Translations under genes and position numbers: made by a program
Shown here: positions 1 through 7,547 of the stretch, one piece after another
Layout: the number at the start of each line of letters is the position of its first letter
How positions within the stretch are numbered: position 1 is the first letter of the stretch
Notes under the pieces: model-generated
Told to the model about the DNA's origin: nothing
Databases searched by the model: none
Seen by the model: the letters and a program-made list of their open reading frames with translations, nothing else
NCBI GenBank assembly: GCA_963837955.1
Contig: CAWIPH010000002.1
Location: 3,584,001-3,648,000, forward strand
Reading direction: 5' to 3'
Source of the DNA: an uncultured Verrucomicrobiae bacterium
GTDB taxonomy: Bacteria; Verrucomicrobiota; Verrucomicrobiia; Chthoniobacterales; JAFAMB01
DNA length: 64,000 nucleotides

Positions 1-979
1 CACGGAAAACGATGTCAAAGAAGCCGCCCGTGCTTTTACCGGCTATCGAACAGACGGGCAGACACAGGAATTTCGTTTTGTTGCGAACCAGTTTGATTCC
101 TCTGCCAAAACTTTCATAGGGAGAACCGGCCCGTGGCGCGGCGATGAAATTATCGATATTATCCTCGCCCAACCGCAGTGCGCAAAATTCATCGCAGCCA
201 AGCTCTGGCGCTTCTTCACTTACGAGGATCCTGAGCCGGCGCTAATCGAGGCCTTGGCCAATAGATTTCGGGACGCTCGCTATGAGGTCCGGCCGCTGCT
301 AAAAACCATTTTTGCTTCAGAAGAATTTTATAGCGCCCGAGCACGGAATCCAGTCGTTAAATCACCGGTCCAATACATCGTTCAGGCGCGCAGGACGATC
401 GGCGTCTCAGCTCCAATGGGGGCGCCTTTGACTCTTATTTACCGGCAACTCGGTCAGCTCCCGTTTTACCCACCTAACGTAAAGGGGTGGGACGGCGGCA
501 AAAGCTGGATTAATACGACTACACTCGCGTACCGTTACGAGTTAGCCCGAGAGCTTGTATATGGAGTGCGCCCGGAACAGGTCGGCCTGCCGAAAGCGCC
601 TTCCAAGCCGTCCCCTAGCCCTACGGTGATGGCGAAGCAAATTCCCGTCTCCGCCCAAAAGCCTGCCAGTAGTAGTTCACCGACCAATTCACCAATCCCC
701 AAATCCACGGCTGCGGTGATTCCACCACCCGCTCCGACGCCCCCTTTTCAGTTAACCGGCGCTTTCCCGGTCGGCAGAATTCTTACTGCGGATGATCGGC
801 GTGACTCACGGCGCGCGCTCCAAAAATTGTGTCAGTACATTTTTCAGACCAATCCAAAACCGGAGTTCTTGGAGAAATTTGTTCAGATCGCCAATTCGAA
901 ACCACATCCACTCGATGATAACTCAATCCGAGATTTGGTAGTCTTGATGATGAGCACCCCTAACTACCAGGTATGTTAG
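1..979 (+). CDS. DUF1800 family protein (5'-truncated by the window edge)
   Basis: The frame is open from base 2 (TENDVKEAARAFTGY...) into ORF 254..979. It has the DUF1800-type motifs DVKEAARAFTG, KSPVQY, LGQLPFYPPNVKGWDGG..WI and C-terminal STPNYQVC. Confidence 0.85.
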   Translation, partial: TENDVKEAARAFTGYRTDGQTQEFRFVANQFDSSAKTFIGRTGPWRGDEIIDIILAQPQCAKFIAAKLWRFFTYEDPEPALIEALANRFRDARYEVRPLLKTIFASEEFYSARARNPVVKSPVQYIVQARRTIGVSAPMGAPLTLIYRQLGQLPFYPPNVKGWDGGKSWINTTTLAYRYELARELVYGVRPEQVGLPKAPSKPSPSPTVMAKQIPVSAQKPASSSSPTNSPIPKSTAAVIPPPAPTPPFQLTGAFPVGRILTADDRRDSRRALQKLCQYIFQTNPKPEFLEKFVQIANSKPHPLDDNSIRDLVVLMMSTPNYQVC

Positions 980-1163
980 CTAATTTTCGCAAGCGGTTGT
1001 AGTAGTCGTGAGCGCCAATGGGGCCAGCGCGTTGGAGCAGCACTCAGTTGCGCCCTGTCGACTTGCCTCAGTCGCCTGATTCAGAACCGACTCCCAGTTT
1101 CTATTTCGCGGAGCTGATTGAGACATCGCGCTTGTGCAAATCAGAGTGAATCGGCGCGGTCGC

Positions 1164-2477
1164 TTACTGACCAGCTGCTCCAAAAAAATGGGCGATTTCT
1201 TCCCACTCGATCGCGGTTTGCCGGCCCTGATCAAATTCCTGGATCATCCAATCGAAGGCTCTCCTGACTCGTGGATCGTCTTTGGCAAAACGGTCCTGCA
1301 GGCGCTGATGCGCTGCGAAAATGAGTCCGGCCAGACCAGAATCTTTAGTAAGTGACACCTCCAAGGGGCGGCCGAGTAATCGAGGCACGTCAAACGGCGC
1401 ATACATCCACCAGAATTTGTTGAGCCCGTCGGCGTGAATTCCGGCTCGCGTCCGGTGTGCATCCCGTCCGTAAAGCGGCGCCTTTTCCGGAATAGGTTGA
1501 CCAAGAGAAGTGTACAGCTCAGCTAGCTCGTTCAATGCCGTAAAATCCGGCTGTACTTCCGCGAAAAATCCCATGCCGATCAAATGCATCAGCACCAGCT
1601 CCAACGGCGCGTTGCCGGTCCTCTCTCCTTTACCCAAACAGGTCCCGTTGATCACTCCACAGCCATTTCGTATCGCGGCCAGACAATTAGCGGTAATTAA
1701 GCCCGTATCATTGTGAGGGTGGAACTCGAGATCGGCAGGCTCCAATCCTGCTTTGATTAATTCCTGAAAAAGTTTCGGTATACCTCGCGGAAGCGGAACG
1801 TCCTGATCGGGTAAGCCGAGCCCAAGGGTATCGCATAAGCGAAACTTGGGTCTAACGCTTTCCGGAAAACCGACGGATTTCTTCCGCACGGCGTCGACGA
1901 AGTAAAGGATAAAGTCGATTGAGGCGCGCGTTGCATCTTCAAGGTGCAGGCGCGGACGGATCCCGGTATCCAATACCATCTGCACCGCATCCAGATAGAG
2001 CGACGCCGCCTGGTTTCGTCCTCCCGGACTAAATTTATGAAATACGTGATAGTCAGAAATCGAAGCGAGAAGCCCCGATTCGCGTACGCCAAGGGACTGG
2101 ATCAGCCTTACGTCTTTGGTCGACGCCCGAATCCAGGTCGTTGGCTCTATCGGGTGACCACCCCGAAACATTTCTTGCACTTGCCGTAGCGCGTCCAGGT
2201 CGGAGCGGCGATAAACAAAAAACTCCGCTTGGCGAATGGCACCCGAATCCCGCGTGAATTGGCACAGGATTTCGTAGATTCGGATGCTCTGCTCCGTGGT
2301 AAGCGGCAATCCCCCCTGCTGCCCATCACGATGGGTAGTTTCTGTCACCCAAACTTGGGTCGGTAACCCTGGCGGGCGCGTCTGCCAGCTGTACTGAGGA
2401 AAAGTCTCCTTCGGAAACTGTTGTTCAAAATATTCGGGTCCCTGGTTGATCACCGGTGCCGAGGGTATCGCTGACAT
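1164..2477 (-). CDS. DRE-TIM metallolyase, Re-citrate synthase-like (LeuA/HMGL family)
   Basis: Motifs VWVTETTHRDGQQ, TWIRA, PRLHLEDATRA, CDTLGLG, HPHNDTG, GERTGNAPLE and TRAGIHADGL. The RDGQQ and RAGIHADGL pattern is that of clostridial/Syntrophus Re-citrate synthases. Confidence 0.75.
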   Translation of the reverse strand: MSAIPSAPVINQGPEYFEQQFPKETFPQYSWQTRPPGLPTQVWVTETTHRDGQQGGLPLTTEQSIRIYEILCQFTRDSGAIRQAEFFVYRRSDLDALRQVQEMFRGGHPIEPTTWIRASTKDVRLIQSLGVRESGLLASISDYHVFHKFSPGGRNQAASLYLDAVQMVLDTGIRPRLHLEDATRASIDFILYFVDAVRKKSVGFPESVRPKFRLCDTLGLGLPDQDVPLPRGIPKLFQELIKAGLEPADLEFHPHNDTGLITANCLAAIRNGCGVINGTCLGKGERTGNAPLELVLMHLIGMGFFAEVQPDFTALNELAELYTSLGQPIPEKAPLYGRDAHRTRAGIHADGLNKFWWMYAPFDVPRLLGRPLEVSLTKDSGLAGLIFAAHQRLQDRFAKDDPRVRRAFDWMIQEFDQGRQTAIEWEEIAHFFGAAGQ

Positions 2478-2513
2478 AAACCAGCGAAGTTCAGTCTCGC
2501 CTTGTCGTCAATG

Positions 2514-2529
2514 TTGATTCATAAATCAA
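2514..2529. promoter_or_regulatory. Palindromic operator candidate TTGATT-N4-AATCAA in the divergent promoter region
   Basis: Perfect 6-bp inverted repeat in the 70-bp gap between two divergent genes, one of which has an HTH domain. Confidence 0.55.
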
Positions 2530-2547
2530 TCTATCTTCCACTCCCCC

Positions 2548-3747
2548 ATGAAGATTCACTTAACCGCCGCTGAGGCAGCCGATTTTCTGAACGTCAGCAA
2601 AGCGACCCTTTACGCGTACGTCAGTCGCGGGCTCGTTCGATCAGAATATGGCGCCGATCAGCGTTCGCGTGTTTATCATCGCCTGGACCTCGAGAGATTA
2701 AAGCAGCGCAAAAGAATCAGGCAGGAACCCTCAGAGGAGATGTCGAGCGCTTTGCACTGGGGTAGTCCTCTGCTGGATTCCGGCCTCACGTTGATCACGG
2801 ACGGCCAAATGTTTTATCGCGGCAAAGAAGCAACCGCCTTGGCGTCCTCCCAAACTTTCCTGGAAGTCGCGACCTGGTTCTGGACTGGTAATAAGGGAGT
2901 ACCCAAGAGCAGCCGTCCGATGCACGCTCCAAAAGAAAAGCATAGAGAACCAATTCTTTCTTATCATGAAGGACTATTGCGAGCCGCGCTGACCGAACCT
3001 CTTGGGTATGATTTTTCGCCACCGAACCTGGTCGAAAATGGAATACACATCCTCTCCCTCTTTCTTCAAATATTAACCCGAAAGCCGAATCCCAGTGTGA
3101 GCCAAACGGCTCGCGAGCTGCGGAAAGCGTGGTGTCCTGGCAAGGCCTACGCCGAAAGAGTAATTGATGCGGCGCTTATTCTCTCGATCGATCACGAGCT
3201 GAACGTTTCATCTTTCACCGCTCGGGTCGTTTGTTCGGCGGGCACTAGCATCTACGAAGTCGTCAGCGCGGCGTTGTGCGCATTGCGGGGCAGCCGCCAC
3301 GGCGGCGCAATCGAGCGAGCGAGCAAATTACTAGTCGAGATGCAAGGGTCGTCCTCCGTTCGCGGGTTCCTCCTCCAGCGCATCCGAGCCGGTATCGAGA
3401 TACCGGGATTCGGGCATCCTCTTTATCCGGATGGAGATCCGCGAGCCGCCAAGCTGTTCGATTTACTTAATCAATACTTCGCGACCGACGCACGACCCTG
3501 GCTGGAGATAGTTACGAGCGCAGCCAAAGTACTGAAACGAAAACCAAATATTGATCTCGCTCTAGCAGCCTGCTCATTGAGCCTCCGTCTTCCACCGCAT
3601 GCGGCTTTTGCTCTTTTTGCTCTTGGAAGAACTGCCGGTTGGATTGCCCACGCCGCTGAGCAAACGCAAAGCGGAAAGCTCATTCGTCCGCGAGCACGCT
3701 ACAGCGGTCCGCTACCGGTAGACGAAAAGAACATCGATCTCCTCTAG
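2548..3747 (+). CDS. Helix-turn-helix (excisionase/MerR-like) - citrate synthase family fusion protein
   Basis: N-terminal LTAAEAADFLNVSKATLYAYVSRG HTH, followed by citrate synthase motifs DHELNVSSF, HGGA, GFGHPLY..GDPRA, PNID and RTAGWIAH. Confidence 0.88.
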   Translation: MKIHLTAAEAADFLNVSKATLYAYVSRGLVRSEYGADQRSRVYHRLDLERLKQRKRIRQEPSEEMSSALHWGSPLLDSGLTLITDGQMFYRGKEATALASSQTFLEVATWFWTGNKGVPKSSRPMHAPKEKHREPILSYHEGLLRAALTEPLGYDFSPPNLVENGIHILSLFLQILTRKPNPSVSQTARELRKAWCPGKAYAERVIDAALILSIDHELNVSSFTARVVCSAGTSIYEVVSAALCALRGSRHGGAIERASKLLVEMQGSSSVRGFLLQRIRAGIEIPGFGHPLYPDGDPRAAKLFDLLNQYFATDARPWLEIVTSAAKVLKRKPNIDLALAACSLSLRLPPHAAFALFALGRTAGWIAHAAEQTQSGKLIRPRARYSGPLPVDEKNIDLL

Positions 3748-3779
3748 GTGACCATCACCACCCGAATCGAAAGTAACTG

Positions 3780-4346
3780 TCAGAAGATCCAAGGGATCAT
3801 ACGTTTTGTCCGCGCCGCGTACTGTCGGTAATCCTCCCCAAAATTATTCATTAACACAGATTCCTCGACCGAAATGCGAATCGAGTAAGCCGTCAGGCAG
3901 CAAGCAACGATCACAACAAACCCGAGCCAGTTGAACGTCAGGCAGGCGATCCCGACCATCGCCAGCATCGCACCTGAATAAGAGGGGTGCCGGACTAAGC
4001 AATATGGGCCATCCTGAATAATTCGGTGGTCCTCCTGAATGCTGACATCCACGGTAAAGAACTTCCCCAAGTGGCGGATCGCCCACAATCTAAAGGCCAA
4101 GCCGGTAAGAATGAGCAGGTCGGCCAGAATAGCAATCCACAGCTTCTCCGGCCAGCGCAGAAAAGTGACTCTACGGGCCACGAAGAACCCAAATAAACAG
4201 CTGCCGACGATAAGAATCCAAACCCAGGAGAGGGTTCCCCGATCAGCGCTTTTTACTGATTGACGACCACGTCGTATCGCCAGCAAATAGAGCTCAAACG
4301 CCAAATAGGCAAAGCCAATAATCTTAGTGATCCAGGAGAAAATCAT
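3780..4346 (-). CDS. Isoprenylcysteine carboxyl methyltransferase (ICMT/PEMT) family membrane protein
   Basis: Hydrophobic protein with GPY..VRHPSYSG, RI.VEE and FGEDY..Y motifs. Start placed at ATG 4346. Confidence 0.85.
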   Translation of the reverse strand: MIFSWITKIIGFAYLAFELYLLAIRRGRQSVKSADRGTLSWVWILIVGSCLFGFFVARRVTFLRWPEKLWIAILADLLILTGLAFRLWAIRHLGKFFTVDVSIQEDHRIIQDGPYCLVRHPSYSGAMLAMVGIACLTFNWLGFVVIVACCLTAYSIRISVEESVLMNNFGEDYRQYAARTKRMIPWIF

Positions 4347-4469
4347 TGCGTTAGCAGACCTAGGGCCAAAACCTAACTCCCCAGCTCGTCGTGTGGCGAT
4401 TTCTTTTCGTGTATTTCCCCCAATCGATGTGTTTTCCACTGCCGGTCTGGCCGTTTCACCAACGCGATC

Positions 4470-4512
4470 TTCCAGATTCTAGATTCCAAATTCTAGATTC
4501 TAGGTCTCAGAT
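4470..4512. repeat. Degenerate heptamer tandem repeat (TAGATTC-like)
   Basis: ccagattctagattccaaattctagattctaggtctcagat. Similar 7-mer runs occur near 50691-50723. Confidence 0.5.
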
Positions 4513-4532: not shown

Positions 4533-7500
4533 TTGATGAATTCGATCGCTCCCCTTCAATCCGAAATCGAGCAGCGCGGACGCCAGATTTTTGCGCTCAT
4601 TGACAAGTTTCAGGGCAATTCTGCCGTCTTTCGCCGGAACGATTTCTATGGCCGGCTGATGGAGTGGTCGATGAAGGACGAAGCATTCAAGACGCAGATG
4701 TTCCGATTCGTCGACGTACTCCCCACCCTGACTTCGTCAACCGATGTAGTGAGGCACTTGGCAGAGTACCTGAAGGACTCGAAGACCTCGGTTTCGGGCC
4801 TCTTGCGCGGGGCGCTCACGGTTGGTCGCATCGCACCGGCCATCCCGGCAGCGGTCATCAAAAGCAACGTCACTGCGATGGCGAATATTTTCATCACCGG
4901 GACGGATGGGAAAACGGCGTTTCCAAACCTTCAGCAAATCTGGAAAGAGCGCGCCCGATTCACCGTGGATATTCTGGGCGAAGCCGTGGTTAGTGATCGG
5001 GAAGCAGACGAGTACGCCGGGCGCTACCGAGCCCTTCTCGATTTTCTGGCGGAGGCAACTCGTCATTGGAAGGCGGAAGAGCCGCTGGCCGCCACTGAGC
5101 CTCCTTTGGTGAACGTATCGGTAAAAATATCCGCTCTCTGCGCGCGCGTCCAAGCTACCGATCCCGCCCAAAGCATTCAAACAATTCTGCAACGGCTCCG
5201 GCCCATAGTCTCGCGGGCCCGCGAACTCGGCGCGTTTATCAACCTGGACATGGAACACTACGGCCTTAAGCAGTTGACCCTTGATCTCTTTAAACAGCTC
5301 GAAGAAGAATTTTCCGGGTATTCGCAGCTTGGGTTGGTGATTCAAGCGTATCTCCGAGATTCTTCAGCAGACGCCGAAGCATTGTTGGAATGGAGTCGAA
5401 GAACTGGACGTCGATTTACTGTCCGACTGGTAAAAGGAGCTTATTGGGATTTTGAAAAAGTGATTGCGGCTCAGCGGACCTGGAAAGTTCCCGTCTACCT
5501 GGCGAAATCCGAGACCGACGCGAACTACGAGAAGGTCACTCGGTTGCTTCTGGAGAATCAGGAAACGGTTTATCCGGCATTTGCTTCCCACAACGTCCGC
5601 AGCATTGCGCACGCGATGGTGTACGCGGAAAAGCTGGGTTTGCGGCCGGGCGATTACGAGTTTCAGATGTTATACGGCATGGCCACACCGATCCGGCGCG
5701 CTCTGGTTGAGCTTGGACATCGCGTTCGCGAATATTGTCCTATCGGCGAACTGGTCCCGGGTATGGCTTATCTCGTGCGGCGGCTTTTGGAGAACACTTC
5801 CAACGAAGGCTTTCTCCGAGCTAAATTCAGCGCGAACACGTCGATTACAAAACTACTGGAGGATCCGGCCGCTATCGTTGCAGAAGAACCGGAACGTACG
5901 GAACCGGCGTTTGTTCAACCGAGATTTGTCAATGAGCCTCCGCTTGATTTCGCGCTTGAAGCCGCCCGGAATAAGATGAGCGAGGCGATCGCAAAAGTGC
6001 GCCAGCAGTTGGGTCGATACTATCCGCTAATGATTGGGGGAAGGCCGGTGAAAACGGAAGGATCACTCAATTCCGTCAATCCTGCGCTCCCCAATCAAAT
6101 CGTAGGTTCGGTCGGGGCGGGCGGCAAGGAAGAGGTGGTGGCAGCAGTGCAGGCCGCCCGGACTGCGTTCCCGCGTTGGAGCCGGCTCTCTATGGAAGAA
6201 CGAGCCAACTTTCTGGATCGCGTCGCGGACCGCCTGCAGCAACGTCGACACGAACTCGCCGCCTGGCAGGTTTTTGAAGTTGGCAAAACTTGGATTGAGG
6301 CCGACGGCGATGTGATCGAAGCGATCGATTTCTGTCGTTTCTATGCGGAAGAAGCTCGCCGGCTAGGTCGAGGCCGGTTAACTCAGGATGTGGCCGGCGA
6401 AGTGAGCCTGGAGAGCTACATCCCCCGTGGGGTGAGCGCAATTATCGCCCCGTGGAACTTTCCTCTCGCCATCCTTTGTGGAATGACTGCTGCCGCGCTC
6501 GTTACGGGAAATACGGTCGTGATTAAGCCGGCTGAACAGTCGTCCGTTATCGGTGCGCTATTCATGGAGGTTCTGCAAGAGTCAGGTCTGCCGGACGGCG
6601 TCGCGAATCTATTGACCGGCACTGGAGAGGAGGTGGGCTCTTATCTCGTCGCCCATCCTGATATCGATCTCATCGCTTTCACCGGGTCGCGAGAAGTGGG
6701 AACGATGATTTGGCAAATCGCCGGTGTCACTCATCAGGGTCAACGCAACTTAAGGAAAGTGATTTGTGAAATGGGCGGAAAGAACGCGATGATCATCGAC
6801 AGTGATGCCGACCTCGATGAAGCAGTGCTTGGAATCGTTCATTCTGCCTTTGGTTTTCAGGGCCAAAAGTGTTCTGCTCTCTCCCGTTTGATTCCCGTCG
6901 GTAAAGCGACGGAGCGACTTTTGCCTAGGTTGGTTGAGGCCGCCGCAGCCCTGAGAATTGGCCTGCCGGAGGAACCAGGCACCGACATCGGTCCGGTAAT
7001 CGATGCAGCGGCCAAAAACAAGATCGAAACCTATCTGGCGCTCGGACGAAAAGAGCACCGGATCGCCTTTGAAGCGAAGCTTCCAGCAGATCTGTCAGGC
7101 TATTTTGTTCCGCCGACTATATTTACTCAGGTTCCGGTGGGTGCCCGACTGGCCCAGGAAGAGATTTTTGGACCAGTGCTTGCCGTGACCCCGGCACGCG
7201 ATTTAGACGAGGCCTTGGAATTCGCAAATTCTACCGAGTTTGCTCTAACCGGTGGGCTTTACTCCCGCAGTCCGCAAAATATCGAAAAGGTTCGTAGGTC
7301 TTTCAACGTAGGCAACCTTTACATCAATCGAGGCATAACCGGCGCTATTGTTGGTCGCCACCCTTTTGGCGGATTTCTGATGTCCGGCGGAGGTACGAAG
7401 GCCGGTGGACGCGATTACCTACTTCAATTCACTTTCCCGCGAGTGGTCACGGAAAACACCTTGCGCCGCGGCTTTGCTCCAGAAACCGATCTGGCAACTC

Positions 7501-7547
7501 AGACGGATGGAGCTGTGGGAAGTCGGAAGCTGGAGGTTCCCGCCTAG
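4533..7547 (+). CDS. putA: Bifunctional proline dehydrogenase / delta-1-pyrroline-5-carboxylate dehydrogenase (PutA without RHH domain)
   Basis: PRODH motifs VRLVKGAYWD, FASHN, EFQMLYGM and YLVRRLLEN. ALDH motifs PWNFP, EMGGKN, GQKCSA and EEIFGP. Confidence 0.95.
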   Translation: MMNSIAPLQSEIEQRGRQIFALIDKFQGNSAVFRRNDFYGRLMEWSMKDEAFKTQMFRFVDVLPTLTSSTDVVRHLAEYLKDSKTSVSGLLRGALTVGRIAPAIPAAVIKSNVTAMANIFITGTDGKTAFPNLQQIWKERARFTVDILGEAVVSDREADEYAGRYRALLDFLAEATRHWKAEEPLAATEPPLVNVSVKISALCARVQATDPAQSIQTILQRLRPIVSRARELGAFINLDMEHYGLKQLTLDLFKQLEEEFSGYSQLGLVIQAYLRDSSADAEALLEWSRRTGRRFTVRLVKGAYWDFEKVIAAQRTWKVPVYLAKSETDANYEKVTRLLLENQETVYPAFASHNVRSIAHAMVYAEKLGLRPGDYEFQMLYGMATPIRRALVELGHRVREYCPIGELVPGMAYLVRRLLENTSNEGFLRAKFSANTSITKLLEDPAAIVAEEPERTEPAFVQPRFVNEPPLDFALEAARNKMSEAIAKVRQQLGRYYPLMIGGRPVKTEGSLNSVNPALPNQIVGSVGAGGKEEVVAAVQAARTAFPRWSRLSMEERANFLDRVADRLQQRRHELAAWQVFEVGKTWIEADGDVIEAIDFCRFYAEEARRLGRGRLTQDVAGEVSLESYIPRGVSAIIAPWNFPLAILCGMTAAALVTGNTVVIKPAEQSSVIGALFMEVLQESGLPDGVANLLTGTGEEVGSYLVAHPDIDLIAFTGSREVGTMIWQIAGVTHQGQRNLRKVICEMGGKNAMIIDSDADLDEAVLGIVHSAFGFQGQKCSALSRLIPVGKATERLLPRLVEAAAALRIGLPEEPGTDIGPVIDAAAKNKIETYLALGRKEHRIAFEAKLPADLSGYFVPPTIFTQVPVGARLAQEEIFGPVLAVTPARDLDEALEFANSTEFALTGGLYSRSPQNIEKVRRSFNVGNLYINRGITGAIVGRHPFGGFLMSGGGTKAGGRDYLLQFTFPRVVTENTLRRGFAPETDLATQTDGAVGSRKLEVPA

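Follow-up and report, generated by a model that had tools for sequence, protein, structure and literature searches.

A citrate-synthase-fold protein with a DNA-binding domain, a predicted regulator, lies divergent from a probable Re-type citrate synthase gene in a verrucomicrobial genome

The 64,000-nucleotide stretch of DNA analysed here (hereafter the window), from an uncultured Verrucomicrobiae bacterium, carries near its start a pair of citrate-synthase-like genes of two unrelated folds (Table 1). As stated in a preliminary description of this DNA, the two open reading frames (ORFs) diverge head-to-head, with start codons 70 base pairs (bp) apart. The minus-strand ORF, hereafter the enzyme, matches a single Pfam family, HMGL-like/DRE-TIM (E 7.9e-30), and scores above the cut-off of no NCBIfam model. 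The plus-strand ORF, hereafter the fusion, joins a helix-turn-helix (HTH) domain, placed by Pfam as HTH_17 at residues 5-55, to a Citrate_synt domain at residues 72-382 (197 bits). The presence of H251, H290 and D336 agrees with the Si-type fold, complete with its His/His/Asp motifs, that had been described for the second protein. Both genes have a G+C content of 0.55, and 0.56-0.58 at third codon positions (GC3), similar to their neighbours. A recent foreign origin of the cassette was rejected because both measures match the neighbouring genes, and pseudogene status was rejected because synonymous changes exceed non-synonymous ones in comparison with three close orthologues.

Table 1 Features of the divergent gene pair and of the DNA between the two start codons (window positions; aa, amino acids)
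Feature	Position	Strand	Remarks
DRE-TIM acetyl-coenzyme A (acetyl-CoA) condensing enzyme, 437 aa	1164..2477	-	Shares a branch with phosphinomethylmalate synthase (PMS), the clostridial-type Re-citrate synthases being its sister group; predicted to be an accessory citrate synthase
HTH_17 + citrate-synthase-fold fusion, 399 aa	2548..3747	+	Predicted one-component transcription regulator
HTH_17 (Xis/MerR-like) DNA-binding domain, residues 1-60	2548..2727	+	Near-invariant recognition segment T-L-Y-x-Y-V-S-R-G
Citrate-synthase fold, residues 72-382	2761..3693	+	H216, H251, H290, R299, D336, R361, R380 kept; Pro294 vs Lys/Arg in Si-type
Candidate operator, inverted repeat TTGATT-N4-AATCAA	2514..2529		Family consensus TTGAT-N6-ATCAA
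TTGACG, probable -35 box of the enzyme gene	2506..2511	-	2 bp from the operator; third half-site also possible
Weak putative -10 box	2483..2488	-	17 bp from the -35 box, 5 bp before the ATG; leaderless transcript inferred

The association of the two genes, first proposed from this single locus, is conserved. Of 36 genomes of the same family 22 carry the enzyme gene, which was found in none of 24 genomes from other families of the order; the closest labelled relatives belong to Chthoniobacterales/Verrucomicrobiota. A divergent fusion adjoins the enzyme gene in 19 of the 22 relatives' loci. In the other three the 5' end of the gene is missing at a contig edge, only a 3' fragment is present, or the fusion lies elsewhere in the genome. 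Three of the 19 fusions are frameshifted (L013, L014 and L018) and only C-terminal fragments occur in G031 and G035, through assembly errors or decay. A wider survey covered the best 80 of 266 genome loci, a set that overlaps the relatives and in which kin are non-independent. The neighbour of the enzyme gene is a fusion at 43 of these loci, a short stand-alone HTH at eight and neither within the stored flank at 27, while two flanks are too short. The pair extends through Verrucomicrobiota and Chloroflexota, with single Spirochaetota, Bacteroidota and Cyanobacteriota records, and is also present on two Deinococcus plasmids. Within that genus, Deinococcus wulumuqiensis bears the Re-type pair. 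Clustering of the neighbours in this survey revealed no third conserved gene beyond single lineages and no recurrent phosphonate or sulfur genes. No fusion lies within 1.5 kb at 12 further enzyme loci of the same branch, nor at any of 18 clostridial-type loci. On these gene-order counts the enzyme-fusion pairing is far beyond chance.

The intergenic DNA contains an inverted repeat that was absent from the preliminary description. Reading towards the enzyme gene, TTGATT-N4-AATCAA is followed after 2 bp by TTGACG. In a genome-wide scan with a matrix built from 37 distinct sites the window site scored 43.7 bits and the runner-up 14.1. The scan found no second full site in the host genome, which therefore holds no wider regulon. 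Across the genome the bare TTGAT-N6-ATCAA shows no enrichment relative to versions spaced otherwise (11 vs 4-15); specificity lies only in the full site and not in the bare inverted repeat. A second TTGATT-N4-AATCAA repeat, without an adjacent TTGAC, occurs in the host genome at G000:C2:2548948-2548971. With up to two mismatches in 15 positions, the site is present at 41 of the 43 fusion loci, 0 of the 8 short-HTH loci, 4 of the 27 loci without an HTH and 0 of 30 further loci without a fusion, although, with a consensus derived from fusion loci, there is some circularity in the first of these counts, and related genomes do not count as independent. Three of the four no-HTH loci with the site belong to genomes with a full fusion elsewhere, as do four of the five genomes that carry the site but no adjoining fusion. 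A 14-base pattern and its reversed control are less circular tests. In 37 genomes of the family the pattern occurs once in 21 of the 23 with the enzyme gene and in none of the 14 without it, and the two genomes missing it hold only 3' parts of the enzyme gene. The reversed pattern had a match in 1 of 41 genomes.

A site-first scan of metagenomes by pattern alone gave at least 120 matches, of which 113 of those listed were evaluable; the site-first counts given here and below are among the matches listed. A divergent fusion-type HTH lies beside 34 of the 113, and beside 17 of the 18 matches that score at least 40 on the matrix. At one high-scoring operator (L180) a Tn5-type transposase gene lies directly downstream. 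A consensus promoter scan of positions 800-4500 found no sigma-70 site, and the assignment of the -35 and -10 boxes relies on cross-species spacing. TAnnnT occurs 16-18 bp past TTGAC at 15 of the 34 HTH-linked matches vs 2 of the 79 others, and 21 of 30 synthase-linked loci have ATG or GTG at a distance of 33-37 bp from TTGAC (reading frame unchecked), so spaced that TTGAC is a probable -35 box. The corresponding distance in the window is 34, with no evident ribosome-binding site, implying a leaderless message.

The gene placed opposite the fusion varies under the same site. Among 35 HTH loci reached site-first, the partners are Si-type in 24, Re-type in six and of other kinds in five, one of which resembles the start of GltA by eye. 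The survey of divergent partners that had been advised thus returned citrate-synthase types at 30 of 35 loci, mostly Si. Glu replaces the catalytic Asp in 13 of 13 full-length Si-type partners (L111, L120 and L125-L184). At 11 plasmid loci (of 20 hits) the partner is Si-type in two, Re-type in two, a family III CoA-transferase in three, a DUF2332 protein in two, DinB-like (by eye) in one and a porin in one. The site can be recognised at 10 of the 11 and is absent at the porin locus. That locus, on a Cupriavidus plasmid (L121), has a porin and an MFS transporter opposite a fusion that has also lost the active-site motifs and is possibly a re-tuned sensor. In some Chloroflexota, mostly Ktedonobacteria, the synthase body is missing altogether, and a stand-alone HTH_17 protein of about 95 aa with the fusion's recognition segment stands opposite a Re-type gene in eight loci and a Si-type gene in three (L040, L042, L044-L046, L054, L062, L064 and L303-L305). 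Seven of the eight short-HTH loci have ATCAA direct repeats in 10-bp phase, compared with none of the 43 fusion loci and 2 of the 27 others. A conserved gene of about 300 aa without a Pfam hit follows the HTH at several of the stand-alone loci. As judged from gene content, the occurrence of this HTH beside either a Re- or a Si-type gene is a second Si/Re swap. We infer that the HTH reads ATCAA, that a dimeric synthase body would impose the inverted arrangement and that Si and Re enzymes are interchangeable targets. Citrate synthesis by the Re-type protein finds its strongest argument in this interchangeability.

Adjoining citrate-synthase-like gene pairs, as in the window, are also present in Caulobacter (CitB/CitC, the CCNA_03757/03758 pair) and in Streptomyces coelicolor (sco5831/sco5832, one of which we take to encode such a fusion). 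According to excerpts of the Caulobacter study, CitB complements Escherichia coli gltA and CitC does not (PMC7083601; bioRxiv 10.1101/799742). The primer-encoded N-termini in an excerpt of its supplement fit the Si partner for CitB and the fusion for CitC (PMC7083601), and on this indirect evidence CitC is a probable orthologue of the fusion. The Caulobacter partner is Si-type, in contrast to the Re-type enzyme of the window. Both pairs are treated as putative enzymes, with no HTH named, in the excerpts of PMC7083601 and PMC12323332. An excerpt of the latter also reports that S. coelicolor MtrA shifts a probe from the sco5831/sco5832 intergenic region, the predicted site starting with TTGAC (PMC12323332). 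This shift, together with the resemblance of TTGAC to a -35 box, is what would be expected if the conserved DNA were simply a short promoter serving both genes, or were bound by a different regulator, the fusion having no control of its partner. Such an explanation appears very improbable, since genomes hold a single copy of the full inverted repeat, never without the cassette, and the repeat stays in place despite changes of the partner gene and gives way to direct repeats where the HTH has no citrate-synthase body. The conservation of the pair, the co-occurrence of site and fusion and the partner swaps under that site instead support, on comparative grounds, the earlier proposal that the fusion regulates the divergent gene. 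It combines two features of enzyme-derived one-component regulators, an HTH joined to an enzyme fold and a conserved, co-occurring site at a divergent promoter. That the fusion binds DNA is thus predicted with high confidence. The HTH residues Y22, S26 and R27 are present in 64 of 64 fusions, and in the comparison with the three close orthologues purifying selection is stronger on the HTH than on the body.

The structure model of the fusion (predicted local distance difference test, pLDDT, 88; predicted template modelling score, pTM, 0.77) displays a complete fold with a flexible linker at residues 64-75, and its best Foldseek matches are citrate synthases (template modelling score about 0.67-0.74). 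Seven citrate/oxaloacetate-ligand and catalytic positions, whose roles in the fusion we take to be those of citrate synthase, are kept in 62-64 of 64 fusions. In contrast, 52 of 64 fusions have Pro at position 294, four residues beyond the second His, a place taken by a basic Lys/Arg in 18 of 18 Si enzymes; Asn at position 334 is conserved in 34 of 64 vs 18 of 18. Both positions are presumably CoA anchors. Positions 254 and 249-250, near the CoA site, are likewise fixed in Si enzymes and free in fusions. The intact citrate cage and the relaxed CoA site point to little catalytic turnover and make citrate or oxaloacetate the favoured, though by no means assured, ligand of the pocket. Thus, of the three ligands put forward earlier, acyl-CoA becomes the least likely through the change at the CoA site, while the residues for oxaloacetate and citrate are kept. 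An alternative for the same residues is a bifunctional trigger enzyme, in which an active citrate synthase or citryl-CoA lyase would control DNA binding through its catalytic state; PutA and BirA are precedents. The completeness of the modelled fold and the retention of the seven residues, H251 and D336 among them, are compatible with activity. However, the catalytic His and Asp of citrate synthase also contact bound citrate, so that their retention equally fits a citrate sensor; moreover the CoA-site positions are relaxed, the fusion scores far under every citrate synthase cut-off and Caulobacter CitC fails to replace gltA (excerpt of PMC7083601). A trigger enzyme is consequently considered improbable.

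The enzyme presents the DRE-TIM fold with the RDG motif, the catalytic Glu and the HxH metal ligands. The fold and an N-terminal extension are shared with the Re-citrate synthases of Clostridium kluyveri (CKL_0973) and Syntrophus aciditrophicus (SYN_02536), as are the motifs RDGQQ, WIRA, SDYH, R-x-H-x-ED-x-TR, R-x-CDT, GERTGN and RAG(I/V)HADG (by eye, Table S1, excerpt of PMC12016533). The characterised clostridial sequences were compared by eye only, and unnamed proxies stood in for them in the trees. ETTH for DTTF, HPHND for HGHND and KFWWMY distinguish the enzyme from the clostridial Re-citrate synthase. The translation contains each of the four motifs quoted earlier (RDGQQ, TWIRA, HLEDATRA and RAGIHADGL), but their use as diagnostic of Re-citrate synthase did not hold, as PMS has the same four, with HLEDTTRS for HLEDATRA. 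Similarly, the pocket motifs WIRA, SDYH, R-x-H-x-ED and R-x-CDT are as in characterised Re-citrate synthases (by eye and by proxy alignment) and occur in PMS too, so they are not diagnostic. Identity is 59% to PMS of S. hygroscopicus (Swiss-Prot Q9LCB4; 248/419 residues), 234/417 residues to Pms of K. phosalacinea, 36-38% to the unnamed clostridial-type proxies bearing Re-citrate synthase motifs and 22-25% to the LeuA and CimA of the host genome. Two quick trees, with long outgroup branches, joined the query group and PMS on a long stem apart from the clostridial type (Shimodaira-Hasegawa-like approximate likelihood ratio test, SH-aLRT, 100). Nesting of PMS vs a sister position gave p 0.149 in the approximately unbiased (AU) test, for whose tree 16 of 42 rows were dropped; the enzyme lies outside a tight PMS subgroup. 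In these comparisons the enzyme is not within the clostridial clade, which weakens its earlier reading as a Re-citrate synthase, but on a separate branch with PMS/PmmS (S. hygroscopicus, S. viridochromogenes and K. phosalacinea), with which it has pocket and metal-ligand motifs in common.

An identity as isopropylmalate, homocitrate or citramalate synthase is suggested by the best NCBIfam and PDB matches, which are homocitrate synthases, but the best score is far under its cut-off (149 vs 463 bits), the genome has its own LeuA and CimA, and W115, R176/H178 and R213/C215 match clostridial Re-type enzymes and PMS, not LeuA/CimA. With no curated cut-off passed and the enzyme grouping apart, this identity was rejected as extremely improbable, and the placement of the enzyme away from these synthases, as originally proposed, stands. 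The host genome (5.6 Mb, 95% complete) also has an HMG-CoA lyase of its own. Two further Si-type citrate synthases are encoded next to a sucD-like gene and within a prp-like cluster, respectively (neighbour names by eye), and the DRE-TIM enzyme is therefore accessory, in contrast to the clostridial type, whose loci had neither fusion nor site in 18 of 18. Two full-length COX1 oxidase genes indicate that the host can probably respire oxygen. The suggestion that Re-type enzymes extend to an aerobe is thereby supported as to the host and weakened as to its novelty, since the branch already has in PMS a characterised member from an aerobe.

PMS belongs to phosphinothricin biosynthesis, where its substrate is phosphinopyruvate and not oxaloacetate; it has reportedly been likened biochemically to Re-citrate synthase. 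In the host genome, at 95% completeness, no phosphoenolpyruvate (PEP) mutase scores over the cut-off, the best TIGR02320 scorer (124 bits vs 320) being a prpB-like gene beside prpC. A role in phosphinate metabolism is thus unlikely, and phosphinate biosynthesis in the host was rejected. On account of the Si/Re swap and the absence of a PEP mutase over the cut-off it is rather likely that the enzyme makes citrate as an accessory citrate synthase, and it probably works like a Re-type one. The main rival is a circuit of the same build tuned to an analogue of oxaloacetate or citrate (phosphino-, phosphono- or sulfino-pyruvate or a similar inhibitor), which the partner would condense or remove. The close relationship to PMS with its branch-specific motifs, the Si partners with Glu for Asp and the CoA-transferase, DUF2332, glyoxalase-fold and DinB-like partners under the same site, which suggest detoxification, are consistent with such a circuit, as is the housekeeping Si enzyme found in every pair-bearing genome among 14 checked. 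In contrast, citrate-synthase types dominate the site-first partners, neither a PEP mutase nor recurrent phosphonate or sulfur neighbours were found, PMS departs from the fusion-linked group at 26 positions that are otherwise invariant and Caulobacter CitB can take the place of E. coli citrate synthase (excerpt of PMC7083601). An analogue-tuned circuit is accordingly regarded as unlikely, albeit less so than the other alternatives.

The reading favoured here, with somewhat more confidence than doubt, is that of a two-gene regulated cassette in which the fusion controls an accessory Re-face citrate synthase. The citrate-synthase body would dimerise and sense a metabolite, and the two HTH heads of the dimer would bind TTGAT-N6-ATCAA, which adjoins the -35 box of the enzyme gene and lies shortly before the start of the regulator itself. 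By hinging between its open and closed states, the fold may reposition the heads, so that citrate or oxaloacetate occupancy of the fusion would gate the adjacent -35 box, by activation or by repression of the enzyme gene. With the fusion ATG 18 bp from the operator, the dimer would also damp its own promoter, autorepression being likely. The metal-dependent Re-face synthase would then supplement the housekeeping Si enzyme whenever flux through the latter is too low, with citrate scarce or oxaloacetate building up. Several observations weigh against this reading. The closest characterised enzyme is PMS, with its different substrate; the Si partners with Glu for Asp may not be plain citrate synthases; and some site-bearing fusions face family III CoA-transferase, DUF2332, glyoxalase-fold or DinB-like genes. 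Furthermore, 27 of the 80 enzyme loci have no nearby HTH and 79 of the 113 evaluable site-first matches no fusion, although many of the latter appear to be chance matches within coding sequence. The retention of the catalytic His and Asp in 64 of 64 and 63 of 64 fusions, respectively, fits an active enzyme as well, and no measurements of binding, ligand or activity for the fusion family came to light in the literature.

Sensing by a whole enzyme fold is already known as a principle, of which a regulator with the citrate-synthase fold would be a new variation. MocR/GabR (aminotransferase fold) and BzdR (shikimate kinase fold) combine an HTH with such a fold as ligand sensor and are divergent from their target. 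The fusion differs from them in its HTH_17 class and citrate-synthase sensor fold, and homology is not expected. In Bacillus subtilis the minor citrate synthase gene citA is likewise divergent from its own regulator, citR; CitR, in contrast, is LysR-type and not a citrate-synthase fusion. No description of an HTH-citrate synthase fusion as a regulator, and no name for the site, was found in the literature, of which most subscription papers were not covered. Excerpts of PMC12723261, PMC11475020, PMC9739823, PMC8981147 and PMC3971608 likewise contained nothing on the regulator. Tentatively, and with the balance tilting slightly against it, the fusions may form a widespread regulator family that uses the citrate-synthase fold as citrate sensor at one near-fixed operator across phyla. 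Its target would have been exchanged twice from Si to Re, the Re-type branch would be a regulated back-up synthase of aerobes and the stock from which PMS arose, and loss of the body would have left a small HTH on the same half-site arranged as phased direct repeats. If so, thousands of 'citrate synthase' annotations would denote transcription factors, paralogue counts in Caulobacter, Streptomyces and soil genomes would have to be reread, and PMS would have a primary-metabolic origin. The short and precise operator makes the regulator claim readily testable, and the fusion might serve as a citrate or oxaloacetate biosensor. 13C flux work takes Re stereochemistry as a mark of anaerobes, and a Re-type citrate synthase in oxygen-respiring cells would bear on such work.

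Relatives of the enzyme include PMS-like proteins fused to an AMP-binding (adenylation) domain, in one case also to a carrier-protein domain (P0440 and P0474), possibly belonging to biosynthetic clusters for citrate-like or phosphinate building blocks. A branch beside the query group (P0292, P0293, P0295, P0323 and P0353) lacks RDG and part of HxH and may comprise pseudo-enzymes. The P0252, P0255 and P0268 clusters hold clostridial/Syntrophus-type Re-citrate synthase homologues that carry the NCBI label 'histone-lysine N-methyltransferase', and P0252, of about 600 aa, has a C-terminal Cache/PDC-like sensor domain. In the window, a plus-strand gene for a DUF1800 protein with a Pro/Ser-rich stretch (2-979) and a minus-strand ICMT-family methyltransferase gene (3780-4439) converge on the cassette from either side. 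The next gene (4533-7547, plus strand) encodes an ordinary PutA of the bifunctional type, which passes PRK11904 and scores far under the cut-off of the trifunctional model. The ICMT and putA neighbours are seen again only at the closest loci.

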